Source of the DNA: Anthoceros angustus
Lineage: Eukaryota > Plantae > Anthocerotophyta
Direction: 5' to 3'
Assembly (NCBI GenBank): GCA_010909165.1
Contig: VJWM01000117.1
Location: 186,001-250,000 of the forward strand
Length of the DNA stretch: 64,000 nucleotides
Shown: positions 17,301-49,770 of the stretch, piece after piece
Layout: every line of letters starts with the position of its first letter
Numbering within the stretch: the first letter of the stretch is position 1
Position numbers and translations under genes: made by a program
The notes under the pieces: model-generated
The model's database searches: none
Seen by the model: only the letters and a program-made list of their open reading frames with translations
What the model was told of the DNA's origin: nothing

Positions 17301-17439
17301 GACTCAAAAATCGATCTGATAAAACACTCGACTCGCCTTGTCGGAAAAGTCAAAAAGATCAGTCGTCCGTGTATTTTCTGAGTATTCCACCGTATTTGGC
17401 GAATATTTTACGCTCCGCCGGTTGCACCCTCATTACTTG

Positions 17440-17965
17440 TGCGCCGCGCGCGCGGCGCACCGCGCGCCGCGGCCGCCGCGCCCTCGCCGGCCGGCCGCGC
17501 CAGCCGGCGGCCGCGCACCCGCCCGCGGCGGCGCGCGCCGCTGCGGCTGCGCGGCGGCGCCGCGCCTGCCCAGCGGCGGCGCCGCGCGCCCAGGCTGCGG
17601 GCTGCGGGCGCCGCACGCCCCAGCGGCTGCGGCTGGCGCCGCCGCGGCGCTGCGCGCCCGCGCTGGCGCCGGCGGCTGGCGGCGCGGCGCCGCCCGCCGC
17701 GGCGGCTGGCGCGCGCCAGCCCCGGCGCGGCTCGCCCGCGGCCGGCTCCCACGCCCCAGCGGCTGCGCGCTCCGCCCAGCCCCGCGGCCCGCCCGCGCGC
17801 CCGCCCGCGGCGCCGCGCCCGGCGCCGCTGCGCGCCCGTGTGCCGCGGCCTCCGCCGTGCCGCGCGGCCAGCGCGCGTCGCGCCGGCCTCCGCGCCGGGC
17901 CGTGGCGCGCGCGGCCGGGGTCGCGGCCGCCTCGCTCACGGCCTCCGCTCGCGGCTGCTGCGGCG
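17440..17965. repeat. Extremely GC-rich low-complexity tract in the Copia-2 5' leader
   Basis: Almost only C/G with recurring gcgcgcc/cccagc/cggccgc words. All six frames are open simply because stop codons are absent. Confidence 0.85.
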
Positions 17966-18063
17966 TTCGCGACCCTCGCGATCTGGATCACACCGCAATT
18001 CCACGGCTGCGCTGACTAGAAAATTCTAGCATCACAACACAACCAAACCATGGCTCGATGCGG

Positions 18064-19829: not shown

Positions 19830-20183
19830 CACATGAATCAAAAGGGTGAAATCAAGGAGGGCCGGGGAGAAGGGGAGAGCAAATTTGAAAAATATACTGT
19901 GAAACAGTGGATCCTTCACACCCTCGAGTGTGAAGGCCGATGGTGACATCGGCGGTATAAGTCCAGAGGAAGAGTGCGAGATAGAGAGTCGGCCTGGAGA
20001 GCAATGATACTTGTGGGTCGTCAATCAACGTGGAGATACCCCACCCCTGTTCTCTGGACTAAGGTTCGGTGGCGAGGAGGGTGGGGAAAATACCTGGGCG
20101 ATGCAATGGGTGTTCCCGAGGAAGAAGATGAGCACACTACTACTCAGTACAAGATCACAAGCGAGAGTCTAACAGGGATGTAG
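19830..20183 (+). pseudogene. Antisense ORF tail in the 3' region of the Copia-4 remnant (copy 1)
   Basis: Reads ...RAMILVGRQSTWRYPTPV...PEEEDEHTTTQYKITSESLTGM*, homologous to 29002-29319. Confidence 0.5.
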
Positions 20184-20489
20184 GAATATTGGTGAGGGCT
20201 ACACCCAAGGGGAAATCCAGGAACACTGATTACGGTGAAGAGGAAAAGAAACCACACAGGCTAAGGGAGACGAGCGGCTAGGCTGTGAGTGTTGCTTCAT
20301 CCACTCTTCTCTTCCATTACCTATCTACCTACATGCGTAGCTACTGTATGTCTCAGCGCTCTTGGAAGAGACTAGGAAGATGGGTGACTGCTGATCAACT
20401 CTAACAAAAGATGCGGCATATGGACAACATGGAAGCTAGTCGGGCGTGAGAGTTTTTGTTGTGCAATACCTTCTCGAGAAGAAGGTGGG

Positions 20490-21040
20490 ACCACAAACAA
20501 ACCTACTGGAGTGTTTTGATGAAGGTGCTTAGGAAATCTTTGTGTAAGCGGGTTAGAGATGTATATCACCTATAAAATATACTCAACCAATACCTCACCG
20601 ATCTCTGCGGCTTGTCAGAATGAAATGATGAGTAATTTGTATATGCTTTGATCTTGCAAGAAATCTGAGGGTTCTTGGAGGGTGCTATGGCCGATTGATT
20701 ATCACACCTGAGTTGTAGGCCGCTCCAAGTTCTTGTAAGCCTTGAAGAAAAACGCATCAAATAACTTCCCTAACGACTTGTGAAAGTGCCCCATACTATG
20801 CCTCTGTAGAAGATGAGATAGTTGATAGCCTTTTGTTGGACGGGATCACAAAAACCTCCTAACAAGTTGCGATGTGACTATACTTCTCTTATTGTCTGGG
20901 TCACTGCCCGGTCAGCTCCAGAGTAAAGGTGAGGTTCAATCCACGCCATTTGCCTTGAGTATCAATCCATGTCTGAGTTCCCTTTAAGTAGCGGAAGATT
21001 CTCTTCTGGCAATCCGTGAGCCTCTCTTGGGTTCATGTGG
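20490..21040 (-). pseudogene. Degenerate Copia RT C-terminus and RNase H (Copia-4 remnant, copy 1)
   Basis: KRIFRYLKGT at ~20980-21010 and LRCDNQSAIAPSKNPQ at ~20670-20720. Confidence 0.75.
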
Positions 21041-21042
21041 CG

Positions 21043-21482
21043 TGTGATACTAATCCCTCACGCACTTGGGTTTAGTGTTTGATTAGCATTAATTAATCTA
21101 AGTACTTATCTTTAAGTAAGTAATTAGTGTTAATTAATCCAGTGCTATGTTAATTAAGTGATTAGTGTTAATTCAACATGGTTAGCAATAGCTAAGTGGA
21201 TAAGCGCTTAAGTATGCTTTGGCATATTCCTTGCATATTATAGTGTATTCTTAGGATATTTCCCATATGCCGTGCCAATAGGATATCTTAGGAATATGGA
21301 TGCGAGGGCTAGTATATATAGACCCTTCCATTGAGGACAAGCTCGGATCATTTGGTCCTCTAGATATGCAAATGCAAGGGTGTTGTAAGGAGGCCAAAGG
21401 TATGATGTCGAGGCGATGTGAGAATTTGTGTTGTTCTCGTGGGAGGGTGTGCTTGTGCCGATGTGCGAGCTACTCCCTCACA
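21043..21482. repeat. LTR-like segment (~440 bp), second copy at ~62985-63414
   Basis: TG...CA ends (tgtgatac...ctccctcaca), AT-rich ttaattaa-type repeats and a TATA-like tatatataga. No TSD recognised. Confidence 0.5.
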
Positions 21483-24266: not shown

Positions 24267-25681
24267 GGATTCATCCACTGAGTACCCCAACATGAGAGAA
24301 CTGACAACCAACAACCACTGTGCAATAAGGAGGCACCACACACAACACAGAGAAGACGAGGGCCTCTGTAAACGATCTGGATTTCGAAACTCCTTGTTGG
24401 ATTGTGTCTTTGAGTGATTTTTTGTTTTTTTCTGCTAAGTTTGGTGTCAAAACGAGCTAGGTTGTCAGTAGGAAGGGATATTTATACTAGAAAGTGTCCT
24501 TGACCTATGAGTTTTGGGTTGTTTCACAGGTTGAATAATAATCGGTCCTTAGACTATGAACTCGATACTCCTTGGCCTTTGGTCTCGGAATATCTAATAG
24601 AAAGTCTATATATGTGGGAGGGGGTCCCCATATTTGGCGGTCCGTAGGCTAGAGGTCGAACCAAGGCGGTAGTTGAGCTGGTGTGTGGTCAGGGGTGTCT
24701 GGGGACTATGTTTGAAGGCGGTTGGCGGCTGGGGCGGTCGTGGAAGGAAGGAGCGGTCGCGGAAGAAGAAGTGGTGGCCGGTTGGCGTCGTAGAGTTTCA
24801 GGAAATATAACCCTAAGGGAACTCGGAAAGGCCGGTGGCGGTGGGTAGCTCAGACGATCCCACAGGCACGAGCTCGCAGGCATAAAGGCGAGGCCACAGT
24901 GGCGGCGGCGGGGCTCGCGATTCTGGAAGGAAGAAACCACAGGGGGCCCGGCCAAGTTGGAGATTGAGGCGAGTTATCAGCAATTCTTGTGGGTGAGGGT
25001 TTTGCAGAGCATGGCGCCCAAGGTTCTGCGAAATTTGGCGCCCAATGGCCAAATATGGACCATTGGAGGGTCAGGTGGAGGATTGGTGAGGGACTTGGGA
25101 TCATGGAAAAGCAGTGGAGAGTTTATGGGAGGATTTTCCGGATCGGACGAGGAAGGAGGACCCATAAATTCAGCAAAGGGCGAAGGCGAGGCGACCAAAT
25201 CGGAGGGAGTGCGGAGATAACATGGGCGGGGAGTAGTGGCATCCTAGGAATAGAACTTTGGATAGGATGCCATCTTGGACCTAAGGCCGTCCAAATTGTA
25301 GGCGCCTCTTGGCGTTGGCCGTTTTAGGACACGAAAGTCGGTGGCTATGGCGCGACAATTGTATAAAGGGGCTTGGTTGTGCCCCTCACATCGAGATAAC
25401 TCTGGTTGAGATCCCCACGCTGTGGCTGGTTGGAGCGTCCGATTGGTGGTGTGCGAGGCGCTCCTAGGGGTGGTCGAGCTTGCTCCATGGCCCAGGGGAG
25501 GAGGGGTGATAGAGCAATCTTGGCGACAAAGGAGGAGGAAACCAAGGGATTGGCGCGGGCGGGTCTGGAGCTTGCTCGTGCGCTTTGTGGCCTTGGGGTT
25601 CTTCTTTCCTTCACCCTTGTTCTTAGTTGTGTTCGAAATTGAGAGAAGTGTTGAGTGGATGGTTGGAAGCTGAGGCGAATT

Positions 25682-26429: not shown

Positions 26430-28810
26430 AATGGGTGGCATAGAAAACACCCTGAGCCCAAGGGCAGCCATATGTTTGTAATGTTTCGTCTTGGGCAAGC
26501 CCTTAGTAAAGATGTCTGCCGTGTTATCCTCTGTACTAACTCAGCAACATCACGGACATAGTGATGATAGAGTTCAATATGTTTGGTTCTGGCGTGAAAC
26601 CTAGGATTGGACACAAGGGCAATAGCGGACATGTTGTCGCAGTAGAGAGTAGTAGGGTCAACCTGAGGTAAGTGAACTGCATCTAAGAACTGTCTTTCCC
26701 ACTCTAACTCTTTGCACGCATCTGTCAGGGCCTTGTACTCGGCCTCTGTTCAAGAGAGTGCCAACGACGACTGTTTCTTACAAGACCAATTGATAGCTCC
26801 CGAGGCAAGAAGAAACACATATGCGAGGCAGACTGCGAGAATCAAGATTAGAGGCGCCCTCGGCACTACGCAAATCTGTAGCAAGAACTCCCTTTGTCCC
26901 TTTGGATTCAGACAGGCACCATAATGCAAGGTGCCCTCACTATAATCCACATGGAGGCATGCCAGTAAGTTTTCACCCTGCTGAGGGTGTAGAAAGCTGA
27001 GGCGACATCCATGTTGAATCTTTTAAGAATCTCTTTAAGATACTTGGTTTGATGAAGGACCACTGACCCATGACTTCTATCACGCAGAATCTGAATGCCC
27101 AGGCAATATTGAAGAGATCCCTGGTCTGTCATCTCGAATTCAGAGCGAAGAAGAGATTTTACTTGGTCAAGGTGCTGCATACTGTCACTAAGGAGGATGG
27201 CATCATCCACATAGAGGGCCAGAATCACAAAGGAGTCTCCAGAGATGAGGTAAAACACATTGGTATCTGCAGGAGACTGAACGAAACCATGTTGCTTGAG
27301 GAATTTCATGATTCGTTTAAACCAGGCCCGAGGGCTTTGCTTGAGCCCGTAGATAGTTTTCAACAATTTGCACACCTTGTTTGGCCAGCGTTTGTCAACA
27401 AACCCTTCAGGCTGTTCCATAAAGAGAACCTCCTCCAATTCCCCATGGAGGAATGTTGTACAGACATCCATCTAATGGAGCTCAAGGTCGAACTCCGCAG
27501 CCATAGCAAGTAGTATACGGACAGATGGCGGCTTTACTACCGGCGAAAATGTATCCCCATAATCGATACCAGGTGTCTGCGAGAAGCCTCTAGCAACGCG
27601 ATTTATAACATGCAATCATTCCATCTGCTTTTAACTTAGTCTTGAAGACCCATTTGCAGGTGATCGACTTGCGGCCAGGTGGCAAGTCTGCCAGCTCCCA
27701 GGTATGATTTTTGATCAAAGAGTTATACTCTTCATCGATGGAAACTCGCCAGTGTTTGCCATCAGGTCCATTTAAAGCTTCAACATAGCTTTGAGGATCT
27801 GGTCTGACAATAGGAACATGCAGGTCAGCTACATGTACACTAGATCTGCGAAAATCAACCGATTGATAGGGTGGCTCAATCCAGTCCTCACGAGCCCTTC
27901 GTTCTCTTGTAGGGTATCGTGGAAGAGAATTAGCTGCTGGAATGGTTCCCTCTGGATCTACATCTCCCACAGGAGCAGGAGGTGCAGCATCCTCCATGTA
28001 GGTAACAGGGTCCATTTCAAGTGCTACAGAACCATTCTCTGAAAGTTCATCCTCTGCAGCATCGACGTGATCAGGTGTGTCAGGTAGCACATCATAGGTA
28101 ACATCCTCTATAGGAACGTTGTCAATATCACCATCATAAACAGGTTGGATGGCTCCATGTGTAGGTAATAGTACAGGCTCACCAAAGGCATCCAGGTCTG
28201 ACAACGGTTGTGGCTCTCCATCTGACACAGGGTAGGTTGTTGGAAGAGAATTTGATCAAGTTCAAACCTAGGATGCTAGCGAGAGAGTTCGTGGCGCTCT
28301 AACTGCTCCACATGAGAAGTTGTCCTGGGGTAAGTAATTCCTTGAAGGTGGCACTCCTAGACAGAACGATTTTGCGAACTTCAAGGTCATACAACTTGTA
28401 GGCCTTCGACTCCTCTGAGTAGCCAAGAAAGATCATCTTAGACCGCTATCTAACTTGCCTCGCTTTGGTCTGTGGATATAGGCAAAAGCAAGTGATCCAA
28501 AACCCTCAAGTGTAGGAGGCTAGGTTTACGACCCCACACTCATATGATGTCTACTGTGAAGGGCGGAAGTTACATATATGTATGCAGCATTCACTATCGC
28601 CTCAAAGAGGACTTAGAAGTGCGATCAGATAGCATCGCGCATACCCATCGCTGTCCGATTTTTCCTTTCTCACACCGCCACTGTTGGGTGTAGGAATCGA
28701 CGAGTGATGCCATGCCTTGGAACAACAGTCATCAAACTTTCTCCCAGTGAACTCGCCTCCATTATCGGTGCGGAAACACTTCACCTATTGGCCAGTTTAT
28801 AAGTTGGAAT
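26430..28810 (-). pseudogene. pol: Copia-3 INT, RT and RNase H
   Basis: FRTDNGGEF; WELADLPPGRKSITCKWVFKTK; MDV.T.FLHGELEE...YGLKQSPRAW...LYVDD; NPRFHARTKHIE. Confidence 0.92.
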
Positions 28811-29319: not shown

Positions 29320-29848
29320 GAATATTGGTGAGGGCTACCTGCAACAAGGGGAAATCCTGAGAACACTGCTACTGATTCTGGTGAAGAGGGAAAAGAAACC
29401 ATACCGGCTAAGGAAGAGACGACGGCTAGCTGTGAGTGTTGCTTCATCCACTCTGTGGGCTATGCACTTCCCTGGGGAGTTAGGAAATAAGTAGGGTTTC
29501 TGTTTTTTTTTAGGATTGAAGGATAAATAAGGCGGAAAAGGAGGAATAAATTGGGGTAGCGACGAGGCTCGGAGTATACTCGGACTCTGGAGTGAACAAC
29601 GGACCCCGGTACCACTATGGCAAGCTCGGACTACGCAGGAATGCAGGATAAGTCGGAACCCACTCCAGTCAAAATAGGATAAATGCCGGAAAGTAACCTA
29701 GGAGGCGGGCGTGAGGGCAGGCGGCGCCACGTGGGCGGCCACAGAGTGGAGGTCGGGCATGCATGAGGCCGGGGCCTTGCAGGCCGTTATAGCGGTATTC
29801 ACGCCCAGGCTGGCGTAAGGCGAAAAGCGGGCGTGGGTCGAGTAAGCC

Positions 29849-32530
29849 ATGCGGACCCACAGCGATTCTGGACAGCGCCTTCAGCTGATTACTTCCTGCG
29901 CGGCCAAGGAGGAGGTCAATTTGTGCGACCTCGGACAATCCTCACGGTCCCTTGCGCTCCATAATCCGGCTCTCTGGCGCTATCTTTTTGGGCGCGTCGG
30001 CAGGCGTTCGGTTGGCAACGAGCAGCGAAGGAGGAACATCGTGCGGCGGACTCGGCCCTGACAACAGAGGAGGAGAAAGCAATGGCACCCAAAAGCCGGA
30101 GTCAGCCATGGACCCTCGTGGGCGCAACATTGTGGCGCTATCCGGACTTGACCTGGAGGCGGATTGGTGCGAGTGGCATCTGGGCGTGTTCCAAATGGTG
30201 GACCTTTGACAAGCGTCACTCTAGTCGGGAGTTTGCGGAAGATCTTGGCGATCAACAAGGAGGTCGATCCAAGAACCTCCGGAGGACCAGGCGATGGACC
30301 TTGGAGGTCCACGAGGATGGCCTAGCCTTAGAAGGAGGAAGAAGGGGCGTGGTGCAGGCCCCTTAAGGCGAAGGGAAGATAGGGCCCGGCCAGTGGCGTC
30401 TTGAGGCACAGAGCGGACAACCAACGGATGGTTGATATCTGCGACGGTCGAGTAAGGCGGTAGCCGGATCATTGTCCATTGGAACACCTCACCAAGGTGG
30501 ATCACCTTGGTGATAACCCTGATGCGCTCGGTGAAGAGCGGTGGGGAAGGATTATCTTCGGTTGATCGAGCCGCAAGCTAAGGCGAAGCCCTCGCCATCG
30601 GTGACCCATACGATTCATGTATGGGGACATTTCGAGCTCTGAAGGAGGAGAGCTTGAGCGGGCGCTCGGGAAGGGGCTGGAGGCCACTGCCGGAAAGGCG
30701 TGCAAGGCGCCGAGGTGGGGGTCGTCCTTGAAGACCAAGCGGACTCGGGAGGAGGACGGCGGAGGATTCCGGACTCCATCGTGGGCGAACCCCTCACCAC
30801 CGGGGAAGTTTGGGAGGCGATTCCCCTCCTTTTGGTGCCCCCTCGGGAGGCGGCACGGGAGGGAGGCGAGGAGGCGTTGGCTCCGGCCAGCAGACAACCG
30901 GCGGCTGCTGAGCCCAGCGAACTCAGGGGCCGAGGCGGAAGGCGGTGCCGCTACCTGTGACCTCGGAAGGTGCGGTACCTTACCACCTTGCAGGTAAAAG
31001 AGGGGCGAAGGGCGCCCAAGGCGAGGAGGTCAGCGGCCACAGGTCTGTCCCCAGGAAGGGGCAAGAGCTTGCTCCGGACCCCTCACCTCCTCGAGCCGGA
31101 GAAAGAGGGCACAAAGGAGTTAGAGGCCAAGAGGCCAAGAGGGTGAGACTCGGACCTCACCACTCGGGACTGAGGTCTGATTAGGTCAGAGAACCCGTCC
31201 GGACTTACTCGGGGCGGTATGGAGGTCCTTGGCGGACCGAAATGCGGCTCCCACTACGGACTTTGTGGGGCCTCACGGTGGCGGTGGAAGAAACAGCGAG
31301 TCACAGCTACCGTCATGGACGGAATGCTTTGGGGTCTCTGGCAGTGGAGAAGACCCGAAGTGGAGGACCCGGAGGAGGATGGTGGAACTCAAGAGCAAGT
31401 GGCGGCCGGGGCAAAGGAAAGGCGGAGTCCCTCGCTCGGATCGAGGAAGGAAGCGCCGGGTGGCGGGATGAGGCCAGGCGGTTCGAGGCCGGGCCAAGGT
31501 TCTTCTTGTCTGAGCAGTGAAACAAGCTCGAGAGGCCCAAGGCGGAGGACCTTCTGCGGCGAAGGCGGCGGGGAGGCGGAGGCCGGGCACAAGCGAGAGC
31601 TCGGGACTGGCGGAGGCGGCCCGGCTAAAGGCCAGTGAGCCGGTAAAGCGGCGAAGAGTCGCCGCGTGAGCGGCAGGATCACTACGGGCGTGATCGGGCC
31701 GGTGGAGAGAGAGGCAGCGACGGAGGCTAACTCGAAGGCCGCGGCTATGGAGCGAGCAAGCCGGCCTCGGGAGATAGAGGATCTCAGATGTGCGAGGAGG
31801 TAGAAGAGGCGGATGGAGGCAAGAGGACCTGGAGCTACAACTCCAAGATCGTCGGGCGGTGATTCTCAACGAGAGAATCCACGACCTCGAGCACGAAATG
31901 TAAGCTGCCTCAAGACGGAGGAAAATCGGCGACTATCGAGTTGGGCGTTGCGGGCTCTGAAGGAGGCGGAGGAAGTCCGGTCGGACGGAGGTATCAGCTT
32001 TGGAGAGGGAGGCTGGCGGAGCTAAAGGCCGAGAATGAGCGGAGGCGCGAGCACTGGGCGAGAAAAGAAGGCTGGTCCGGTGAGAAAGGCGGAAGGGCTG
32101 CGCTATGGCGGTGGTGGCGATGGAAGGAAGCAGCGGCGGGAGGCGGTGAGGCGGCAGGTGTGGCGCGCCTTGTAGCCTCGCGTCTGATGGCTCCAAGTCA
32201 ATCTGGCGGGAGAGGTGGCCCAACAAGCCGGGCAAAAGACGCCCTCAACACTTATGGCGGAGGAGTATCGGGTGCTCGGGCACCGTGGAAGAGGCAATTC
32301 AACAAGTCGATTCGGACTTTGCCTATTACCAGCTCACGAGCGGTAGAAGCCTCTCGGCCCTGCAGACGGACCTGGAAGGCTCAAGGAGATGAAGGCCACG
32401 CAGGGGCAGCCAGGGACCCTAGTGGCCTGTTTGGAGATATGAGGAGGCGGGCGGAGGAGCGGAGGAGCGAGGGAGGCGGCGGATGCGCAGCACCCCGCAC
32501 CTCACCATGGAAGGAGGGCCAGCGAAGTCA
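29849..32530 (+). pseudogene. LTR(U3)-resident long ORF of unknown function, frameshifted in this assembly
   Basis: Chained frames include EWHLGVFQMV, RRKKGRGAGP, TVMDGMLWGL and an E/K/R-rich coiled coil. It lies upstream of the LTR TATA box, is repeated in the 3' LTR copies, and is homologous to 961-1254 plus 7399-9130. Confidence 0.6.
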
Positions 32531-32584
32531 CTGGGCGATCGGGAAGGAGGACTTGAGGGAGGCCAGGAGTCCGTGAGGGAGGAA

Positions 32585-32720
32585 AAGGGTGGGCGTGAGT
32601 CCGGACCCAGTCCGGACCCAGGAGGTCGGGACCACGTCCGGACCCGTGTCATCCGGACCACGAGGTCCGGACCCGAGAGACAAGGTCGGACCTAGTGGCG
32701 GACCCGAAATGCGGACTCCA
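32585..32720. repeat. Cluster of short gtccggacc repeats in U3 (also at ~57890-58000, ~60095-60185 and ~61085-61210)
   Basis: About eight (g)tccggac(c)-like words at irregular spacing, between the ORF end and the TATA box. Confidence 0.8.
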
Positions 32721-33073
32721 CGAGTTCGGGGAGTCGAGACCTCGAGGACCGGGCTGCGGCGATGAGGAGGAGCCCCTTGACTTACGCTAGGGCCGATGGG
32801 GTGGCCCCACCGGCGAAGGACCCGAGGGAGGCGAGGAGGATGGCGTCGTGTGTGGCGGTTGTCGAACCAGATAGCGGATTAGAGGAGGGGCCCGCCTCAC
32901 GGATCATCCGATTGGGTGCACAAGCTGTCGGGGAGAGTTGGACCACCCATTCCGGAGGCGGGGCCTTGACCCCTGTCTGAAGGAGATAGGAGATAGGGGA
33001 TAGGGGTAGGCGGCCGATTAGGGTATACCGAAAGCTATCACCGTAATAGGGGTAATAAAGGCACCTTGGGCGA

Positions 33074-33078
33074 TATAA
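33074..33078 (+). promoter_or_regulatory. Putative LTR TATA box (equivalent at 61567-61571)
   Basis: gatataagaggg is conserved in both LTRs ~540 bp before the LTR end. Confidence 0.6.
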
Positions 33079-33618
33079 GAGGGAGGCTCTAGTAAAGCAT
33101 CTTTCTCTTGGTGTTGATGCCGCGCTCTGCATTTTGTGAGTCTTCTTGCTAACGTGAGTCTGAGTCCGGCGAGCGCGACTCGGGAGATTGATCAAGGTCC
33201 GTGGCGGACTTAACGTTGTGGTGTGTGCGGGGAAGGGTGAGGTGATCGTGCTCGTCCGGGCAGCGGTCACCGAAACATGGGCAGCGTGGCCGGAGGAACT
33301 CGGGAGGGTGTAGAGCCGGACGGAGGCGCGGAGGAGGTCGGATGCGTAACCGTCTCTAAGGCGAGAGTGTAGTGAGAGGAGAGAGAAAGGATCGTGAAGG
33401 ATGTATGTGAGCAATCTGACGACGGGTCCCTAAGCGTTTAGCCATCACAAGACTGTCTGAAGCGTTGTGAGTAGTTAGGAGTATGTGTGTGTTGAGTGAG
33501 CAGCGCTAAGGGGCGGTAGAATCACAAAGCAGTGCAGGGCCTATCATTCCCTTGGGAGCGGACTTCTTCCTACAACGACACGGATTGTCGGCGCGGCCAT
33601 CGCAAAGTCCGCCACATT

Positions 33619-33635
33619 TTGGGCGTTGCGGGAAT
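33619..33635 (+). promoter_or_regulatory. PBS, tRNA-Asp type (second copy at ~35205-35218)
   Basis: tgggcgttgcgggaat and tggcgctgggaat are deleted versions of TGGCGCCGTTGCCGGGGAAT, the complement of the tRNA-Asp 3' end used by Athila elements. Confidence 0.7.
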
Positions 33636-33684: not shown

Positions 33685-36600
33685 ATGCGTGGCGGTCGGC
33701 GGTCAAGAGTGAACCGTCGGGAGGATCGGACGTGGTCACCTCGCGTGCTCTCGAGCCGAGGAGAGGGAGGCGTCAAACCCAGCGAGAGCACCGTCGATCG
33801 GAGGAGGAGAACGTGGTCGTGTGCCGGACAAGGCAGTCGAGACGAGGGCGAGCGGAAGAAGGTAGGGGCGACGCCTAACCCGCGATGGCGTGACCATGGC
33901 CCCTACCTCGACCAAACAAGCGTACTCCATATTCGGAGGGAAGAAGGAGGCGGGATGGAGACCTTTGTGGAGGACTTCATGTCCAAAGCCAACTTCAGCG
34001 GAGGAGGCGTAGCTCATCCAGCTTTTCAAGGGGTTCTCAGGGCAGTGCTCAATGGTATCGGAGTACCGACCAGGAGAATGCCCCACCCGCCTCGTTTGAA
34101 GCTTTGAAAATGCCTTCTTAGAGCGGTTTCGAGGATCGACCGGGAGGGTATGTATTATCAAAGTTGGAAAATCGGCGAGGAAGAAGGAGAAAGGCTCGTA
34201 CATCGAGCGGTTCTATGAGGATCGGCATCCAACCCATACCACGATGCAAGCGTGACGGTGGTTGGCGGTCTAGCCAAACCCATGGCCAGGCACGTCCTGC
34301 TGCTGGCCGAGAAGGACGTGGGCAAGGCGGTCAGAGCGGCCGAAAACTACGAGGAATCGCTACATCAGAGGATAAAGAAATCCGCTCAAGGAGGCAAGAA
34401 GAAGAAGAAGAAACGGGGTTCAGACTCCGAGGAGGAAGAGTCTTCAGAGGAGGAGGAAGACCAATCGGAGGTGTCTTCGGAGGAGGAGCAGTCGTCCGAA
34501 GAAGAGACGGAGGTCTCTAGCGAGGAAGAGTATCCCCGCAAGAAGAAGAGCAAGAAGGCCCCGGCTAAAAAGAAGCAGGGTAAGAAGGAGGTGGTGACAC
34601 CGGCCGGTCAGAAGCTCCGGACCCGACTCCCTCAAAGGAGGTGGCAGTGCGGAGGACTGGAAAAGTGATAAAGAGTAGAGGACACAGCGATAAACCGGGT
34701 TAAGGGCCGAGGCGGAAAACACCGACGGTGCGAGCGCATCTACGGTGTCGTGTGCCAACACGGCCATTCGAAAATCAAGCGCCTCAAGGCGGTGCATCAA
34801 GTGGACTACGAATCGAGGAGGAGGTGAGGAGCAATGGGAAGAGGCCTATCAGTGCAGAAGCCCCTCACGGGCGCGATATCCCAAAACCATGTGTCCGTCA
34901 GCGGAGGTCCGGATCACAGAACCGCGCTTTTTCTAAGATCAAGAGTGTAGCGTGAGAGGAGAGAGGAAAGGATGATGCGAAGGATGTGTGAACGATACGG
35001 ACGAACGGGTCTCAAACGCTTGGCCATACCGGGCTCAGACGGAACGCCAGAGTAGTTAGGAGTATGTGTGTTGAGACGAACGAGCGCTAAGGACGGTAAG
35101 AATCACCAAACGCTGCGGGCCTATCATTCCCTTTGGGAACGGACTTCTTCCTACAACGACACGGATTGCGCGCGCCCGCCGCCATCGAAAAGTCACGCCA
35201 CATTTTGGCGCTGGGAATGAAATCGGCAAAGTGCGCCCTTAGGAAGAGAAGGTAAGTGAATGCGTGAGGTCGAGCGACGGTCAAGAGTGAACCGTCAGAG
35301 GATCGGACGTGGTCACCTCGCTGCTCTCCGAGCCGTGTGGAGAGGAGAGACGCCAAACCCAACGAGAGCACCGATCGAGGAGGGAGAACGTGGTCGAATT
35401 GTCGGACCAAGACGAGTACGGGTACAGGGACGCCAACGGAAGAAGGTAGGACAACCCACGCCTAATCGATGGCAGCCATGGCCCCTACCGACCAAACAAG
35501 CGCATCTATATTCGGAGGGAAGAAGGAGCGGATGCGAGACCTTTGTGGAGGACTTCGTCCAAAGCCAACTTCAACGGAGAGGGAGACGCGCAGCCTCATC
35601 CAAATTTTTCCAAGGGGTTCTCCGAGGACACTCAATGGTATCGGAGAAAGTACCGACCACCGGAGAATGCCCCACCCGCCTCGCTTGAAGCTTTGAAAAT
35701 GCCTTCTTAGAACGGTTTCGAGGATCGACCGTGAGGGGTATGTATTATCAAAGTTGGAAAATCGGCGAGGAAGAAGGAGAAAGGCTCGTACATCGAGCGG
35801 TTCTATGAGGATCGGCATCCAACCCATACCACGATGCAAGCGTGACGGTGGTTGGCGGTCTAGCCAAACCCATGGCGAGCACGTCCTGCTGCTGGCCGAG
35901 AAGGGCGTGGGCAAGGCGGTCGAGCGGCCGAAAACTACGAGGAATCGCTACATCGGAGGATAAAGAAATCCGCTCAAGGAGGCAAGAAGAAGAAGAAAGC
36001 GGGGTTCGAGACTCAGGAAGAGTCTTGAGAGGAGGAGGAAGACCAATCGGAGGTGTCTTGGAGGAGGAGCGGTCGTCCAGAAGAGACGGAGGTCTCTAGC
36101 GAGGAAGAGTATCCAGAAGAAGAGCAAGAAGGCCCGGCTAAAAGAAGCGGGGTAAGAAGGAGGTGGTGACACCGGCCGGTCAGAAGCTCCGGACCCGACT
36201 CCCTCAAAGGAGGTGGCAGTGCGGAGGACTGGAAAAGTGATAAAGAGTAGAGGACACAGCGATAAACCGGGTTAAGGGCCGAGGCGGAAAACACCGACGG
36301 TGCGAGCGCATCTACGGTGTCGTGTGCCAACACGGCCATTCGAAAATCAAGCGCCTCAAGGCGGTGCATCAAGTGGACTACGAATCGAGGAGGAGGTGAG
36401 GAGCAATGGGAAGAGGCCTATCAGTGCAGAAGCCCCTCACGGGCGCGATATCCCAAAACCATGTGTCCGTCAGCGGAGGTCCGTCAATACAGCAGGCCCC
36501 ACCGATGCACGACCGCATGGGAGCCTTGGGTATCCTCCGTGCAGTAGTGGTCTGCATTGGGCTGGAATCTGGCCATTACTCCAGCGTGTCCGTACAGCAG

Positions 36601-37240
36601 GCGGTAATAATGGGGACTTGTGTGGCGGCCGGTGGGCATATGACGATGCTATGTCCCAACCCCGAGGGGCAGTGCGATATGCCACACCAAGCGGAGAACC
36701 CCGACCACCACGCCACCTCCTAAGGCTCCGTCACGGCGTCGAAGATGCTCGATTGGCGGAGTGGGAAGAGATTCCCAGAGGTACGCGAGATGGAAAAGAA
36801 GAAGATGCGGTGGGGTGTCGAAAGGAAGGGAGTCGGGCGTGGAAAATCTTGGAGGTGTCTACTCGTGGCCGAAGGAAGGAGGGCGAGAAAGGCGCCGGTG
36901 AAGAAGAACAAAGGCGGAGAGCGTCACGGGCCGAGGAAGGCAATCAAGCGGAAATACCCGGTGAGAGGATCCGGCCGATGAAGGAGGGGGGCAGGCTCTG
37001 CGGGAGGATTACGAAGGAAGTTCTCGTGCGGGGAGGGAGAAGGGCAGTGCCTCCGCGGCGGCGATTTCCACGGACGTGGTCAGGGGGTAGATGTTGCGGG
37101 AGGAAATCAAGCATCCGGAGAATACCGAACACAAGTGACCGGGAGAGGATGAGACGCAGCAATAGGATCCTCGATTGGGGTAGAAGCCTCTTTAATGTGG
37201 CGGACGATGATGAATCAAGACACCTTGTGTCCTTTCGGCC
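33685..37240 (+). pseudogene. gag: Gypsy gag; the N-terminal half is present twice
   Basis: Retrotransposon-gag-like ETFVEDF...FQGVLR...QWY...F.ERF, acidic/basic tract SEEEESSEEEED...KKKSKK, and Cys/His knuckle remnants at ~36610-36700. Confidence 0.8.
34925..36480 (+). repeat. Tandem second copy (~1.56 kb) of LTR end, PBS and gag 5' half (33355-34911)
   Basis: Second LTR end cacgccaca at 35202 followed by a PBS. The ORF track shows near-identical peptides at 34164/35754 and 34728/36300. Confidence 0.9.
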
Positions 37241-37329
37241 TTGAGGATAACCCGAAATCTGGCAAGAGGTCCGTCGGGCCGTTAGAAACCTCGCACCAAA
37301 GCCGGAAGGGTATACAGTGGAAGTGAGGG

Positions 37330-38324
37330 TGGTGTCCCATACGGACCCAGGCGCCGATGGTACAAGTGGAGATTGGATGTATCATCAAGGATGTACCGTT
37401 GGACACGGTCGGAGTCAACCTCATCACGAAGCCACGGCACGAATTGGGCTTCACATCCTTGAACCCTCAGAAGACTACGAGAATGGCGGACATGTCGAAG
37501 AGATCCGTGGAGTTAAGCAGTCTTGGCCACCATAGCCGTGCACCCTACAAACCGGATTTTGTTGTGATCAAACCGGCCGGACCATTAGGGTATGAGGTGT
37601 TCTTTGGGCGGCCATGGTTGGCCTGACAAGCTACACTTTGGAAGGAAGGAGATTCACTTCAAGCCGTGGTGGGACCCTAAGGTGCGAGAAGGGAGGTTGC
37701 TATCACGGAGCAAGGACACCTATTGTGGGGAAGCTGAGCACTACGAAGGGTATACCTCGTGGAGGACTCCAGCGGCGAACAAGATAGTTCAGGAGGCGTA
37801 CCCTTTCGCCAAGATCCGCCGGTCCGAGGAGGAGATGGACTACCGCGGATGCCTTTGGTGCGGAAGTGGTTGATTGTTTTCGAGTAAACGCCACAACGGG
37901 CCGGAGGAAGGAAGTGAAGGAGGTCGGACCCGGCCTGAGGGGAGGCAAGAGTCGGACCAAGGAAGCGGACATCGGAAGGGTAACACGATTCACCTCAAGC
38001 AGCTCTTGAGGAATGGGGATGAGAGGGCGATCCAGGAGGAGGACGAGGGTTTGGGCCAGGCCGAGGAGCAGGAGGCAGTGAACCCGGGACGTGGAAGAAG
38101 TGGAGGTCCGCAGCAAATTTCAAGTTTAAGAAGGCATGCCTCGGGACTGAAGGAAGGTAAGCAATCTGGGGAGTTTTCGGTATTGCCTTCAAGGTCACGA
38201 TTAGGGGACGGGCGCGGAGGCGTCGAGAACGTAGGGCCGAGAGCCGCGATAGGCCGTGCGCGCCGACGCGAGTCCGCCTCGCGTGGCGGGAGGTCGAGGC
38301 GATAGCCAGGTCCGTGACCAACCG
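37330..38324 (+). pseudogene. pol: Gypsy aspartic protease and linker, cut by the insert
   Basis: VGVNLI...MAD.SKRSV...VVIKP..P.GYEVFFGRPWL. The frame reads ...EVEAI just before the insert. Confidence 0.75.
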
Positions 38325-38354
38325 TACAGCAAATTATAACTATCTTTTCTTCTT

Positions 38355-38910
38355 GGATGATAATATCCTAATTCTTTTACTTTCACACTTCATAGTGTCA
38401 TTTCCGAGGCCATTTTCGGTTTTATTTCAATCTTCATCGAAGCGGTATGTCGCAAGCTCTGACTCTGGATAAGCGATAGAAGTGAAAATCACTTACACTT
38501 GGTTCTAAACGATGCTTGCTGTGGTAATTTACTCGACGGCAAGGAAACCGGATGAACTGCAAATCAAATTTGATTACGAGCGACATGAGGTGACTCAAAC
38601 GCAAAACCCTAAGCTCGAAGCTTGGATGAAAGATAATATCCTAATTTTTACTTTCACACTTCATGCGCTGGCTTCCGAGGCGTATTTTCGTTTCGCCGCA
38701 TCTTCATCGCCAAGCTTACCGCAGCCCGCATGCGCTGACCATAAGCGGTGCTAGAAGTGAAAATCACTTACACTTGGTTCTAAACGATGCTTGCCGTGTA
38801 ATTTACCTGTACGGCAAGGAAACCGGATGAACTGCAAATCAAATTTGATTACCGACCGAATGTATATCTGGCCACACTCAAGAACGCAAAACCCTAAGCT
38901 CAAGCTGGAC
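38355..38910. repeat. Tandem repeat, ~270-280 bp x2
   Basis: gataatatcctaatt...tagaagtgaaaatcacttacacttggttctaaacgatgcttgc...acgcaaaaccctaagctc occurs twice. Confidence 0.88.
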
Positions 38911-40059
38911 TGAATCAACCGAATCAAAATGATGTACTATACTACTTTACCTTGAAGTTCGTTGTAGTTGTTTCTTTGATGCACTCGACAATTCTTGATA
39001 ACCCGAGGGTTTGTAGCTTCAAGATGGTCCGAGAATCGACAACAAGAAAGCCAAGGTGCAAGCTACTTGAAATGTTCGTGGGGCCGTTGTGGGCCCGGGC
39101 TCCTAAGCTTTGCCGGAATCTTCAACCCGTGTATAACCTTCAAGATACAATGAGCAAATGACATAAAGACTCATCATTTCCTTAACACCCTTGTGAGGTC
39201 ACAGATCACATGTTGTGCTCAACTTCACTCATCGATGGCCCATCCTAGCCCCTCTGTCGAAGCGCAAACAAAAACATCCACGTGCACTTGCAAGTCGGTT
39301 CGTCGGGTTGCTATCTCGAGACTTGGGAATGATCAAGAGAAGCTTACAAGTTAAACAAGTCCGCATGAAGATAACTGCTAACAATTTGGTCATCATGCGC
39401 AACTTAAGGAGTTGACATTGCACATGCCTCGATTTGAGCCATGGTGGCAACGGATTTTGAGGAGGAGTTGGCTTTCTGGTGGTTTGGCTTCCCTCGGTTA
39501 ATTAGGGCGGTCCACAATCTGCAGAAGACAATAGCATTAGAGCATGACGACATGCTTTACATCCTAGCGAGCTAATCTCACGATACGCAAGAAATTGATT
39601 GCAAGGGCATCCGGGCACTATCCCACAAGCTCAAACAGTTCACTCCCTTTTCTCCACACATGAAGAGCAGCATTTTTTACCAGATTCTCTCGCACACTTG
39701 AGCCTTGGATCATGGACATCAATGGTAGGAATACAGGCAAGAAAAATACTCAATGTATGCCATTGGAGCGTCTCCTTGGCGGATCCGTTTAAAACTCATA
39801 TGTAAGCGACGCAACCTTTTAAGTCCACAAGGCAAGAAACATTTCAGACGAAACACACAGGACCCCATTGCTAACGCCAAAACCACTGGTAGCCACCATA
39901 ATACTCACAGTATCGCTCGCCATTTCGGTGAACAATTTGAAAACATTGCAATCTCAATGCACAATTCCGGTATCGCCTCCTCGTGGCTAGAGTTCCTTGC
40001 ATCAACAAATCTCGGAGACATCGACGATCGATCGTTTGTTGATCTTGTGGGGTCGCTCA

Positions 40060-40780
40060 CAAGGAAGTTGCGAGGCAAGGCCAGTGTGCGGAGGCTCAGC
40101 TCCTGAGCGGTGGCGGATTAGTCGTGGTAGGCGCCGCCGGCACCGATAAAGGCCCGGCGAACACCGCACTGCAGTACGGTAGGATACCATCATGAAGGAT
40201 GGAGCTCGTTGGTGCCCAGAAGCAAATCGGAGCACGCCACAAACAAACATTTTTGTCAAAAGCGAGCCATGGCCAGCCGCATTCAAGCAGGCCTGTACCA
40301 ATGCATTCAACGAAATGGCTCACTCACATGATCACGCCAGACTTGCGCGTGGTCCATGTGCGCAACTCAAGCTCTGGCGGTTGATTCCGTCGGTGATCGG
40401 AAGCGTGGCAAGAATCACCAGAAACACCGCGAATCCGATCGGCAAGGGCGCGAGAATCTACCGTGCAGCGCCAGGCTGTCGAGCGAATTTAGCGTGACCC
40501 AACATGACCCACGATAATCGACACCACGCGGTCCGAATCCGGTTCATGTTCATACCGGAACGTGAGAATCACGCGCATTCCTCTTGGCGTCGGTGGCCGA
40601 GAGCACGGTGTGGACGAGGACGAAGGTGCCCACGATCTCGGCTCCCAGCCCCGTTGCCTTGGTGTACCCGTGCTGCACCATGTTGGCGGCCCCCGTGCCG
40701 TATCGGTCGAAGAACGCGGACTGCCATCCCTTCACCAACCCCACCCCCGCCACGCTCAATGGCAGGACCAGATCACACAT
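40060..40780 (-). pseudogene. PIP1: 3' half of a plasma-membrane intrinsic protein (PIP1-like aquaporin) gene with two introns
   Basis: Exon ~40780-40556 GVGLVKG...[39 protein letters not shown]; GT-AG intron 40555-40458; exon 40457-40328 ILAPLPIGFAVFLVILATLPIT.GIN..RSL; intron 40327-40169; last exon with GPFIGA..AAYH. Intron positions match the conserved PIP layout. Confidence 0.92.
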
Positions 40781-41520
40781 CAAACTGAAGACTTGCCAGC
40801 TTCCCCAAGGACACCATGTTGCCTGAGACTCTTCTTAACTCCTCTGCACGCAAGCCCAGGTAAGCAGTCGATGGCGAGCCCGCATCGCTGCAGATCGTCT
40901 TTGAGTCCGAGCTTTTTCTCTGCAAGCAACTCGCTCTGTGGAATCTGAAGGAGACCGGTTCTTGGTGGCGGTCATCGAGAGGGACCACGGACATCGTGGT
41001 GCACACCATAGCCGGGCTCCGGGACTCGGCTCAAGCTCAAGGAGACGGAGAGCTTGGGTGACCTCTCGTGGCACCAATGTGGACATAAACTTCCTCGGCG
41101 CCCTTTGGGGAGATCGGGTGCCTACACGGTGGTGCGCACATCAAAATCAAGACTTGCCGCTTCCCAAGGACACCATGTTGCCCGAGACTCTTCTTAACTC
41201 CTCCGCCGCACGCCAAGGTAAACCAGTCGATGGCGAGCCCGCATGCGCCTGCAGATCGGCCGGAGTCTCGAGGCCGCTTTATCGCGCAAGCAACTCGCCT
41301 GTGGAACTGCAAGAAGGAGACCGCCTTGGTGGCGCCATCGAGGGACCACGACATCGTGGTGCACACCATAGCTGCCCGGGACTCCCATCAAGCTCAAGGA
41401 GACGACGGAGAGCTTGGGTGACCTCATGCGCACCAATGTGGACATAAACTTCTCGCCTTTGGGGAGAGATCGGTGCCTACGAGGTGGTGCGCATATCAAA
41501 GATCAAGAGACCCAAAGATC
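40779..41520. repeat. Tandem repeat, ~360 bp x2 plus a partial unit, abutting the PIP fragment
   Basis: Units start catcaaa..aagacttgcc at ~40779 and ~41140, with a partial unit at ~41492. Confidence 0.85.
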
Positions 41521-42639
41521 AAGCCATCTGGTGGGCGGCTTCTCGCATCGCCCTCAAGCGGAGCGAGGCCGCATTCGGAAGCAACTAGGGGCGAATCGTG
41601 ATCCCCAACAACTGTCTGCAAGTATGTCTTGTTTTTCTCTCGCCTCAAGAGTTGGGCGAGAGAGGAAATGGCGTGTGGCGAGTCACCGTTGGAGCCGATG
41701 GAGCGTGAGGCTGGTGGAGCGGTGGGCGGCAATGGCGGCAGCAGTTAGGCGGGCCTTGCGATGAGTGCAATGAGGCGGTATTCCTTTCCGATCCAATCGC
41801 CATCAGGTGCCCTATCGCAATCGGCAAGGATCGAGACCCGGGGGCGATGCGGATGCATAGCGGGTTAGGGTTGGAAGTTTCTTGCGGATGACCTCGTGTA
41901 TTGTTTGATTGGTCGGCGACCGTTTCCATCGTTCGAGGTTCGAGTTAGGTTTGGTGTGGTCAAGCTAGGTTTGGTAAGTGTAATTTAGGTTTGGCGGCTA
42001 GAGCGTGGCCAATCATAGATTTAGGTAGGTTTGGAATTTGGTTTGGAATTCTAGGTTGATAAATTCAAACAAGGTGCAGTAGAGAGAGATGGCGGGATGG
42101 AGGAAGGAGTTAGGGTTTTGTATGCTATATAAACTCTTTCTTGGATGGTATTGTCTTTTCCTAGGGTAGCTCAGGGCCAAGGTCTTCGTAGTTGCGTCTT
42201 TTGTTTTGTAGTCCAAGGTTTCCATGTCCAAGTCCAGTGTCTTTGTCAGTTTGAAGTAGTTTGAAGCCAATTTCTTGTTTTGTTGTGAAGTTGTTACTTC
42301 AAAAGCCAAAGTTGTTTGCCTCAAGGCCAAGGTTTCTCGACTTAAAGGCCGATGTCATTTTTCGAGTGTCTTGGTCTTTTTTGTCGGCGTTTTCTCCGCT
42401 CTTTTATTGCTACTCTTGCCTTATGTCGCTCTTCTCTTTAGTTTGTGTGCTGTAGTTTGTTTGTTGTTGCGTTTCATGGCGTCTGTTGAGTTGGTGTTCG
42501 AGTTTGTTTTGTGCATGCCTCTTTTCCTCTCCGGGCCGTTGATGACCTTACTTGAACTGTTTATGTGTGTTCGAGTCTATTATGCGCCAATAAGGTGCGG
42601 GTTAAGCACTTCTATGTGTGAAGTCGTTTATATCGTTTC

Positions 42640-44830
42640 TTTGTCTTTTTCGTATGCATCTTGTGTCTTTGTCTTTCTTACTTCCTTGAAACCAATATAA
42701 AAACCAAGGCTGCCTTTGGAGGCTAGTAGGGAGTTTTGAAGTTCTTGGTTGGACATTGAAGTATGGCGCTTTTGTGTTTCATTTACGCTCACGTTTGCGA
42801 CTTCGATTGTTTAGATGGAAAATTGGTCTTCTATCTATTCTTGTTTTGTTGGAGTTCTTGCCGTCGCGTGTTCACGATGTTCCTCTTCACGTAAGTCTTC
42901 TTATTTTGTTACTCGCGTTTACGGATACATAAAAAGTTTCCATCTTTATCTCCTATTTTTTTTTCATTGTCACCTTGTGTTGTTCCATCGTAGAACATAG
43001 AGTTTTATGTATGTTCTTTGTCTAGTTTGTGAAGGTTTACATTATTTGTTTCGTTTAACATTTGGCTTGATTGTCCTCGATGTTATGCATCTTCATGAGT
43101 TTCGATCTTTCTTTGTCTTTTTCGTTATGCATGTTGTGTCTTTGTCTTTCTTATTACTTCCTTGAAACCAATATAAAGGCAAAAGGCTGACCGGAGGCTA
43201 GTAGGGAGTTTTGAAGTTATTGGTTGGACATTGAAGTATGAGCGCTTTTGTGTTTCATTTACCACGTCGCGACTTTCGCTTGTTTAGATGGAAAATTGGT
43301 CTTCTATCTATATGTTTTGTTGAGTTCTGCCGCCGTGTTCACGATGTTCCTCTTGCGTAAGTCTTCTTATTTTGTTGTTACCGCTCGGATACATAAAGAA
43401 GTTTCCATCTTTATCTCCTATTTTTCTTTCAGTTGTCACCTTGTGTTCGTCCATCGTAGAACATAGAGTTTTATGTATGTTCTTTGTCTAGTTTGTGAAG
43501 GTTTCCGTTATTTGTTTCGTTTAACATTTGGCTTGATTGTCCTCGATGTTATGCATCTTCCTGTGATTTTCCTGATCTTTCTTTCAGTTTCTCACCTCCG
43601 TATGTTTCGATGCAGGGGTTGCCGAAAGCTTCGAAAAGATCCGGACTTAACTGAATGTATACTCTGGAAAGTAATAACTGGTACGATCGTTGTTTGTTTG
43701 GTTGTGTCTTCTGTTTAGGGCTTTCAAGCCTCACCATTGATTTCCGTGTTATCATCCATTGTATAGCTTTGATCTTTTGGTTGTGTCATTACTCTTACCT
43801 TTGTGTTGGTTTTGTTTTCTCCTCAGTTCATAAGTTCGTTTATTTGTCATTCATTGTCTTGTAGACTAGCAATAAAGTTTTGTCGACTTTGTAGCTTCCT
43901 TTCGATTAATTATTTCGGTATGTTTTGTCATGCGAGAAGAGTTTGGGCGGCTTGAAGGATATATCCGTGGCTGGATATCTGCGAAGTAATTTGTGCGATT
44001 CATTCTTTGTGTGTTGTTTTGTTTGATTGTGTGTCATTTCGGGACTATAGTTTCATTGTTTTGTTTGTGGCGTTTTGAGTTTCTTTGTTAGCTTTGTTTG
44101 GTGCTTTTCGATTGCTTACTTATGTCTTGGCGGCGAGGAGAGTGTGGGGGCTTGAACAAGATCCACGAAGAAAGAAAATTCTATCGATGGGTGAAGCAGT
44201 GGTATGTTTTCATCTTTGTGTCAATGTTATGCATCTTCCGTGAGTTTCGATCTTTCTTTCGCTCACCTCCGTATGTTTTCATGTGGTTTGGGAAGCTTGA
44301 AAAGATCCGACTTAACTAATGTATACTGGAAAGTAAGAACTGCACGATCGTTGTTTGGTCGTGTCCTCCGCTTAGGGTTTTCAAGCCTCACCATTGATTT
44401 CCGTGTTGTCTCATCCATTGTATAGCTTTGCGCCTTTTTGGTCTTACCTTTGTGTTGGTTTTGTTTTCTCCTCGCTCATAAGTTTGCTTATCTATGTCAT
44501 TCATTGTCTTATAGACTAGCAATAAAGTTTTGTCACTTTGTAGCTTCCTTTCGCTTAATTATTTCCTATGTTTTGTCATGCGTAAGAGTTTGAAGGATAA
44601 GATATCAGAATCGGATAATACCGCAGAAGTAATTTGGGTGCGATGCATTCCAATTATGTGTTTCGTGACTATAGTTTCATTGTTTTGTTTGTGGCGGAGT
44701 TTGTCGTTAGCTTTGTTTGGTGCTTTTCGCTTGCTTACTGTATGTCTTGGGCGAGGAGAGTGTGGGGGCTTGAACAAGATCCTCAAGAAACTGAAATTTC
44801 GCTCAGTAGGCAACAGTGGTATGTTTTCAT
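42640..44830. repeat. T-rich tandem duplications (~475 bp x2, then ~660 bp x2)
   Basis: ttacttccttgaaaccaatataaa at ~42680 and ~43153; aagatccgRacttaact at ~43637 and ~44302; junction word ttatgcatctt. Confidence 0.85.
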
Positions 44831-45189
44831 CTTTGTGTCAAACTGTTGTCTGTCACTACGTTTCTCGCTTGTGTTCGTCTCTGCTACATACATGCAAAAT
44901 CGCGTGTGACGCATTGTTGTTTGACCTTTACCTTTGTTTGGTTCACTCTGAATGGTATGGTATTTACGAATATGTTTTCTTGCCCGGTTAGCGATTTGGT
45001 GGGATTTCTAGAATGAGCTTTCATCTAGATGTACACAGTATTCACTTGGAGTCAATTTTTTCTACCCTGCTTCTGGTTTCAACATTTATGGTGGATGCAT
45101 TTCACCCACATGCCATGTTTTCTACTCTATTGTAATAGATTCTACTATATTGAGTAAAAAAATGACCAAATGGTCAATTCTCTTTCTAG

Positions 45190-49742: not shown

Positions 49743-49760
49743 TGTTGGCGGAGCGTAGAT

Positions 49761-49770
49761 GAGAAGGGAG
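49761..49770 (+). promoter_or_regulatory. Polypurine tract (second copy at 51693-51702)
   Basis: gagaagggag, followed by ta and the LTR start tgtgggct. Confidence 0.85.

Follow-up and report, generated by a model that had tools for sequence, protein, structure and literature searches.

Can a plant retrotransposon's long terminal repeat (LTR) hold a gene, and what might such a gene do there? The question is raised by a stretch of 64,000 nucleotides from Anthoceros angustus (Anthocerotophyta; GenBank assembly GCA_010909165.1, contig VJWM01000117.1, positions 186,001–250,000 of the forward strand), here called the window, in which position 1 is the first letter and features lie on the + strand unless stated otherwise. 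One Ty3/gypsy element of the window (29454–62130) is composed of LTR, primer-binding site (PBS), gag, protease, reverse transcriptase (RT), RNase H, integrase, polypurine tract (PPT) and LTR, in this order, with a target-site duplication (TSD) on either side. A first-pass annotation had described it as an Athila-like element with a long open reading frame (ORF) inside a 4.16-kb LTR. The explanation that we prefer, with a probability of roughly 0.55, is that this LTR holds a likely accessory gene, whose protein, with a predicted VANC21-like DNA-binding domain and a coiled coil, would oppose host silencing. Annotation pipelines treat LTRs as non-coding, and a gene in this position would be missed by surveys that depend on them.

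A 4.16-kb LTR and the coding region inside it

The 5' LTR (29454–33616) is 4,163 bp long, begins with TGTGG, ends with CCACA, and is matched piecewise over its full length in the 3' LTR (49773–62130). The TSD, CACTC, stands at 29449–29453 and again at 62131–62135, and the empty site is preserved in an uninterrupted copy of the flank (19889–21475) with a single CACTC at 20302–20306. Directly behind the 5' LTR lies a PBS-like sequence (33617–33633) that is near the Athila tRNA-Asp/Asn PBS TGGCGCCGTTGCC (10 matches, 2 gaps); in its duplicate at 35206, TGGCGC is exact. At the other end of the internal region, the pol stop TAG (49740–49742) is followed after 18 nt by a purine tract (49761–49770), which forms part of a terminal signature with PPT (49744–49772; second copy of the junction at 51672–51705), and the 3' LTR begins at 49773. 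Because the TSD, the empty site, the PBS, the PPT and the piecewise match in the 3' LTR agree, and the ends are TG..CA, the 4,163-bp LTR is real; this bears out the first-pass annotation, which had also placed the PPT only about 20 nt past the pol stop. The second copy of the repeat that hosts the insertion occupies 19889–21475 and 24371–24985.

The quality of the sequence determines how the interior of this LTR can be read. Tandem duplications of 1–2 kb occur throughout the window, and contigs of a high-depth run (X1) differ from it by single-letter gaps at at least 12 places among the alignments listed. The LTR copies agree at 74–83% with many gaps, yet some 300-nt blocks are 100% identical, and for this reason the internal tandem duplications that swell the 3' LTR to 12.3 kb are likely an assembly artefact. 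Since the window is error-ridden long-read sequence, breaks in a frame carry little meaning.

Within the 5' LTR, a coding region with many broken frames begins at an ATG (29849) and extends to at least 32,430; its 3' end is uncertain and may reach 32,530–32,980. The evidence that it is coding comes mainly from a second, diverged family in the window, 68% identical in DNA to the main element. The 5' part of its LTR (528–1253) has a TGTG start, the same conserved islands and an aligned ATG (997–1000), and the remainder of its LTR gene (7399–9170, cut off near 9170) continues beyond a Copia element nested in that gene (1254–7398; gag, zinc knuckle and integrase matches, LTRs of ~180 bp, TSD CCTCG/CCTCA). 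A frame of 410 codons in this family contains 4 in-frame stops against 12.3 expected (p=0.003), with a period-3 signal of z=12.4. When main-element copies (at least two agreeing) were compared with the second family, 38/312, 47/314 and 71/293 sites differed at codon positions 1, 2 and 3, respectively (p=2.6e-4); the same comparison in a non-coding 5' control gave 11, 11 and 12 differences. Furthermore, a contig of 1,635 nt from X2, a run that may be RNA and whose contigs represent a related family, spans the motif region of both families. A weaker indication is that, of 30 differences used from an X2 contig, 13 are silent in the chosen frame versus 5 and 11 in the others. Because of the 410-codon frame and the excess of third-position differences, we conclude from these substitution patterns that the LTR region is coding. 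The period-3 test is uninformative in the main element (z 0.3–1.1 in the LTR region), since the signal has also been lost from its own RT–integrase region (z 1.3).

The two families share the layout of this region from its start. Their 5' ends align through the TGTG start, a poly-T tract ending in AG that resembles a splice acceptor (29497–29513; 590–612 in the second family), GCCACGTGG (29726), GGGCATGCA (29755) and the ATG at 29849. The segment 29726–29763, kept in the second family, is a candidate promoter of the LTR gene; the four copies of GCCACGTGG, a G-box, that the window has on its + strand are all at this point of the LTR. Downstream follow a W-rich conserved domain (30082–30650), which includes the basic patch RRKKGRG (30333–30353), the motif TVMDGMLWGL (31309–31338), common to both families, and a long helical, coiled-coil-like region (31350–32430). 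Both families carry TVMDGMLWGLCG and then the helical region. Its homolog in the second family (7907–9136) was modelled as long helices, and a single-sequence model of the helical half gave long helices with only generic helix matches. The ATG, RRKKGRG, TVMDGMLWGL and a TATAAG at 33074 all lie where the first-pass annotation had located them. Its claim of about 2.7 kb of coding sequence (~29849–32530) stands as to coding character and location inside the LTR, but no open frame spans the region and the end remains uncertain. Its view that the gene is not env-like for want of a transmembrane segment also agrees with our scan: no 19-residue stretch exceeded a mean hydropathy of 1.44 in any + frame of 29849–32980, where broken frames could hide one. 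The maximum was 1.12 in the second family, and 1.65 was reached in one noisy piece of the 3' LTR.

Position of the gene relative to the terminal PPT in related elements

To place this layout among other elements, we used 80 metagenome-contig loci with related integrases, many of which have a long sense ORF past pol. A conserved terminal signature, GTT.GCG.G.AC.C ... GGGG.TA directly before the TG of the LTR, occurs among the loci, and nine of them have both this signature and the ORF. In six (L012, L014, L023, L025, L028 and, judged by eye, L027), as in the window, the signature comes directly past pol and ahead of the ORF, whereas in three (L001, L005 and L006) it follows the ORF, which is the usual Athila order. 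In L007, the signature also stands past pol, at a point beyond which the contig has no sequence. The PPT–LTR junction of the window is nearly base-for-base like those of L012 and L014. The contigs of L023 and L027 also contain the other LTR end with the PBS; the LTR ends TGTGGGAGC and GCTCCCACA of L023 are inverted repeats at 9/9 positions, and those of L027 at 8/9. Because these ends match, the ORF lies inside the LTR in both loci, with its ATG 514 nt (L023) and 660 nt (L027) from the LTR start. In L014, the 1.1 kb beyond the ORF contains no second signature.

These results show that the in-LTR layout is not peculiar to the window element, as six related loci have the same order. In an integrase tree of 30 of the 80 loci, all unlabelled, the six form one clade (support 100), and the window sequence, which is noisy, falls close to them but not demonstrably with them (support 54–56 on the joining branches, 80 for the wider group). 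Both placements of the terminal PPT are found among the relatives, which fits the earlier proposal that the gene has shifted relative to the LTR boundary. We regard it as likely that an accessory gene of the Athila type has moved into U3.

Other features of the relatives concern their purine tracts and ORFs. A G-rich tract, unlike the terminal signature, occurs right past the pol stop in L004, L005, L006, L009, L015 and L047; L005 and L006 have both this tract and the terminal signature, like the two PPTs reported for Athila4. According to the accessible part of PMC2829016, both Athila4 and Calypso have additional upstream PPTs. A "central" PPT upstream, of the kind found in Athila4, was considered as the priming site of the window element and dropped, as its PPT corresponds to the terminal signature and not to the post-pol G-tract of L005, L006, L009 and L015. 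The extra ORF of L005 (2204–5098) has ~960 codons with one in-frame stop and, past the coiled coil, a long conserved-looking C-terminal part with no Pfam match. L029 has a PPT–LTR junction at 2058 and another at 4756, with a gag-like ORF behind each, and may represent tandem or non-autonomous elements.

Predicted fold, candidate target motif and competing explanations

The ORFs of the relatives begin with a common N-terminal domain of ~210 residues, which is followed by a coiled coil and low-complexity sequence. Two of 11 such ORFs match PF20167 below the curated cut-off (L001, E=2.5e-4; L024, E=2.9e-3). When the W-rich block of the window was compared with this domain (extra-ORF family represented by L025, L014, L023, L006, L015 and L037), hhalign aligned the two in register with P=0.059 and 0.027. 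In an ordered-block search, in which blocks were chosen from the loci alone and both strands of the window were scanned, a W-rich LTR copy ranked first, scoring 47.2 versus 44.3 for the best of 107 background peaks; five of the six W-rich copies were in the same register, and targeted tests against shuffles gave p=0.005 and 0.02. As far as such alignments can tell, the relatives' extra-ORF domain is thus a probable homolog of the W-rich block. RRKKGRG aligns within the conserved domain and may therefore be part of it; the basic patch of the first-pass annotation is present and may be more than a nuclear localization signal (NLS).

A model of the relatives' domain had high confidence (predicted local distance difference test score 89, predicted template modelling score 0.85). 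When it was compared with 48,161 chains, the top structural match was the VANC21–DNA complex 9lnk (Z 6.5, root-mean-square deviation 4.0, 197 residues aligned), the next reaching Z 3.5; the VANC21–DNA complex 9lnj gave Z 7.0, with a deviation of 4.4 over 201 residues. The match spans ~200 of 237 residues (~85% of the domain) and covers residues 289–555 of VANC21. Taken with the alignments, the model suggests that the LTR protein is probably a member of the relatives' extra-ORF family, with a predicted VANC21-like fold, and a DNA-binding, anti-silencing function may follow from it. PMD, named earlier as a possible profile hit, did not appear (no PF10536 match in 59 single-frame LTR pieces of the window or in 11 relatives' ORFs).

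Other searches with the protein returned little. The 59 pieces, which derive from broken frames, gave no match to PF20167 or PF03078, and their best Pfam hit (E=0.0073) was low complexity. No DUF1985 match was present in the relatives' ORFs scanned, and a PDB sequence search with the relatives' domain found nothing. Protein searches with window pieces found 0/115 candidates, 0/7,998, and none in a set of 1.84 billion representatives. No integrase came closer to that of the element than 54% identity, and the nearest named one, from Marchantia, has 45%; the element's own family is thus absent from the libraries, and for this reason the blank protein searches say little. Metagenome and viral contigs held no match to the DNA pattern for MDGMLWGLC, and none of the 80 loci was hit by the window LTR in tblastx.

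A candidate target of such a protein is a motif with a TCCGGA core. TCCGGA occurs 11 times in the window LTR versus 2.4 expected when trinucleotides are kept (p=4e-5), and most densely in a cluster of GTCCGGAC-type repeats (32599–32720), which are candidate binding sites; 32551–32800 contains 5 copies versus 0.2 expected. With the same expectation, four of the six in-LTR loci are enriched at p<1e-8, whereas enrichment at p<0.001 was found in 0/3 canonical loci and 0/71 other loci. The flank, the Copia element and the insert of the window contain none. In the accessible text of PMC5735166, VANC proteins are described as binding short motifs that accumulate, often in tandem repeats, within their own elements.

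If these parts belong together, the element could work as follows. The TATAAG at 33074, which forms with an AATAAA at 33054 a pair of candidate main promoter and candidate poly(A) signal (33054–33079; the pair recurs at 61543–61572), would be the main promoter, and its position would place the gene in U3. Reverse transcription would place a copy of a U3 gene in each of the two LTRs, and solo LTRs would keep it. Transcription of its mRNA might begin at a promoter of its own within the LTR's first 395 bp; alternatively, the mRNA might be spliced to the acceptor near 29513. Its 3' end might lie past the AATAAA at 33054. Through the coiled coil the protein would form oligomers, its VANC-like domain would bind the TCCGGA-core motifs enriched in these elements, and this binding would lower the methylation of the element, as VANC does for VANDAL transposons.

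Several observations weigh against this reading. The 5' LTR has no single long ORF, so the long ORF described by the first-pass annotation is not confirmed: the longest + strand stop-to-stop frame has 237 aa, and the motifs fall in different frames. Of 11 single pairwise codon-position tests, with frames picked by eye, one reached p<0.01. The second-family copy has no counterpart of 30080–30920, which contains the W-rich block. As for homology, nine of the 11 relatives' ORFs do not match PF20167 and the two matches are below the cut-off; hmmsearch with the relatives' family profile found nothing in the window; in frameshift-tolerant alignment, one profile exceeded 60/60 local shuffles but scored 33.2 against a window-wide background of 37.8; and for the piece at 52920 hhalign returned P=0.7. 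The domain model was built from the relatives (L025 first) and not from the window's own sequence. The VANC21 match, at Z 6.5–7.0 and 11–12% identity, is below the level of 8 that the tool counts as clear, and under which, by its own note, a match may be a common arrangement; Foldseek against PDB and BFVD had no match to the domain at E<=0.001. Finally, TCCGGA shows weak enrichment in L025 (p=0.02) and L028 (p=0.1) and is enriched inside pol as well (12 versus 0.9 in L014:1–2484 and 21 versus 2.5 in L027:3145–7311, by dinucleotide shuffles). Because it was selected after inspection of L027, is present in pol, and was tested on six in-LTR loci that form one clade, its enrichment is a lead only.

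Three other explanations share part of this evidence. The gene could be real, within the LTR and of the same extra-ORF family, and yet encode a structural or trafficking factor, such as a particle scaffold, a nuclear import factor or a host-protein adaptor, with TCCGGA enriched for other reasons. We regard this as doubtful, although the coiled coil makes up more than half of the region, the fold match is middling, the second-family copy has the coiled coil without the VANC-like block, and an Athila domain with predicted pentamers and many host contacts is described in the accessible part of PMC13547354. Against it, the only clear structural neighbour among the chains searched is a DNA-bound transposon anti-silencing protein matched over most of the domain, and the motif enrichment tracks the in-LTR layout. 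An improbable variant puts the gene in R or U5 and not in U3: a promoter in the first 400 bp would start the genomic RNA, and the gene would work like a duplicated 5' extra ORF, in the position of Ogre ORF1 or Tekay ORF0. Such a promoter would suit the G-box and CATGCA islands that are conserved upstream of the ATG, as well as the TATA-like sites upstream of the ORF in L012, L023 and L025, which are not found in L014, L027 and L028. However, both LTRs have a pyrimidine-rich stretch downstream of the TATAAG (33074 in the 5' LTR), the TATA of L027 lies 150 nt ahead of the LTR end, and strong-stop DNA would have to be longer than 3.5 kb.

We consider it very improbable that the long LTR is specific to this copy, produced by mis-primed replication, recombination or mis-assembly, with a normal LTR of ~0.6 kb (33,010–33,616) and a decayed internal ORF as the coding region. 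Assembly duplications pervade the window, a purine-rich tract (32,980–33,010) stands just ahead of the AATAAA/TATA block, and the extra upstream PPTs of Athila4 and Calypso (PMC2829016, accessible part) offer a parallel. This account is nevertheless opposed by the TSD and the empty site, by a post-pol PPT that matches the terminal signature of the clade nearly base for base, by the second family, whose LTR begins at the same position, and by six independent loci with the same layout; as a hint only, X1 contigs begin at the LTR edge, and their depth in the ORF region is like that of the LTR end and above that of gag. The purine tract itself may be what is left of an earlier PPT, which would then have marked the edge of a 0.6-kb LTR.

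The preferred reading, that of a U3-borne gene for a DNA-binding anti-silencing protein, has a wider form, which we hold more tentatively: that a widespread bryophyte-type Athila-like group moved a VANC-like gene into U3, and that each LTR, also a solo one, would thereby comprise both the protein and its TCCGGA-core targets. Such a self-sustaining, sequence-specific anti-silencing module might survive loss of the element body and, acting in trans, hold cognate elements and neighbouring host DNA free of methylation. If so, solo LTRs, usually an element's dead end, would stay sources of a trans-acting factor. The extra ORFs of Athila are without assigned function in the accessible parts of PMC7264820 and the ATHILAfinder preprint; intact natural homologs (L014 and L025), a predicted DNA-binding fold and a candidate motif make the anti-silencing idea directly testable.

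Comparison with Athila and other known systems

The element resembles Athila elements in several features. The gag and protease region (33890–37800) includes a 1.6-kb tandem duplication (33355–34911/34932–36483), and RT, RNase H and integrase, the last partly duplicated, occupy 45215–49742. Between protease and RT lie ~6.9 kb of unrelated sequence (38330–45215) with short tandem duplications of their own, a T-rich part (42,000–45,000) and no notable Pfam match, representing a nested insertion or a mis-join. Elsewhere in the window are further Copia RT fragments on the - strand (26911–28255 and 14584–14925) and very GC-rich patches of tandem or palindromic repeats (12330–12680 and 17300–18030). 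Spacing compared with full-length relatives leaves no space for an extra (archaeal-type) RNase H, and pol ends at the integrase tail without a chromodomain. The TSD has 5 bp, as in Athila, compared with 4 bp in Phygy and Selgy (PMC6317226, the supplement table). The PBS, with sequence errors, is near the Asp/Asn-type motif TGGCGCCGTTGCC, as that motif is given in the accessible part of the ATHILAfinder preprint; the relatives L006, L023 and L027 have TGGCGCCGCTGCCGG as PBS, for which another tRNA is also possible. A TSD of 5 bp, a PBS of the Asp type and the absence of an extra RNase H fit Athila rather than Phygy, Selgy or Tat, in agreement with the initial classification.

The element shares with Athila of the PF03078/PF20167 type these three traits and a sense ORF downstream of pol. 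In the accessible text of PMC11728184, an Athila extra ORF of sunflower has PF20167 and an NLS-like patch. An extra ORF in the internal region, past pol and ahead of the 3' LTR, is a common though not obligatory Athila trait (PMC6317226 and PMC7264820, accessible parts) that is absent here; instead, the terminal PPT comes right past pol and the ORF lies past it, within the 4.16-kb LTR. The window integrase also falls among bryophyte-type elements, away from the three loci whose Athila layout is most angiosperm-like. Plant extra ORFs are placed in the internal region in the parts available of a review (PMC7264820) and a survey (PMC6317226), and our literature search, with subscription papers and most supplements outside its scope, found no plant retrotransposon gene inside an LTR. 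Retrosat2 and RIRE3 similarly have very long LTRs (>3 kb) and an extra ORF without assigned function; they differ in being chromoviruses (Tekay), with ORF0 upstream of gag-pol and not described as lying in the LTR (PMC3485330, accessible part).

Some retroviral accessory genes, namely MMTV sag and HIV nef, lie in or overlap U3 and are copied into both LTRs. The analogy with the window element is one of position only, since the analysis turned up no link in sequence or fold and the LTR region is several times longer here.

A functional parallel would be VANC of the VANDAL (Mutator-like) transposons, an accessory protein with a coiled coil and a short motif enriched, partly in repeats, within its elements (PMC5735166, accessible part), to which the relatives' domain is similar in predicted fold. 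The carrier, by contrast, is an LTR retrotransposon and not a VANDAL/Mutator DNA transposon, identity is 11–12%, and the candidate TCCGGA core differs from the YAGTATTAY of VANC as given in the same part of PMC5735166. VANC is described in the accessible text of PMC13547354 as dicot-specific and derived from MAIN-like proteins. Unlike the PMD ORFs, which are located in Ogre internal regions and not in LTRs, the window pieces and the relatives' ORFs are without PF10536. However, PMD-C is reported to be structurally like the DUF1985 domain of VANC and to counter Polycomb silencing (bioRxiv 10.1101/2024.09.27.615353 and PMC13547354, accessible parts for both statements on PMD). Because PMD-C has this resemblance and retrotransposons encode PMD-A, a retrotransposon extra ORF with a VANC-like fold, as predicted here, has a precedent.

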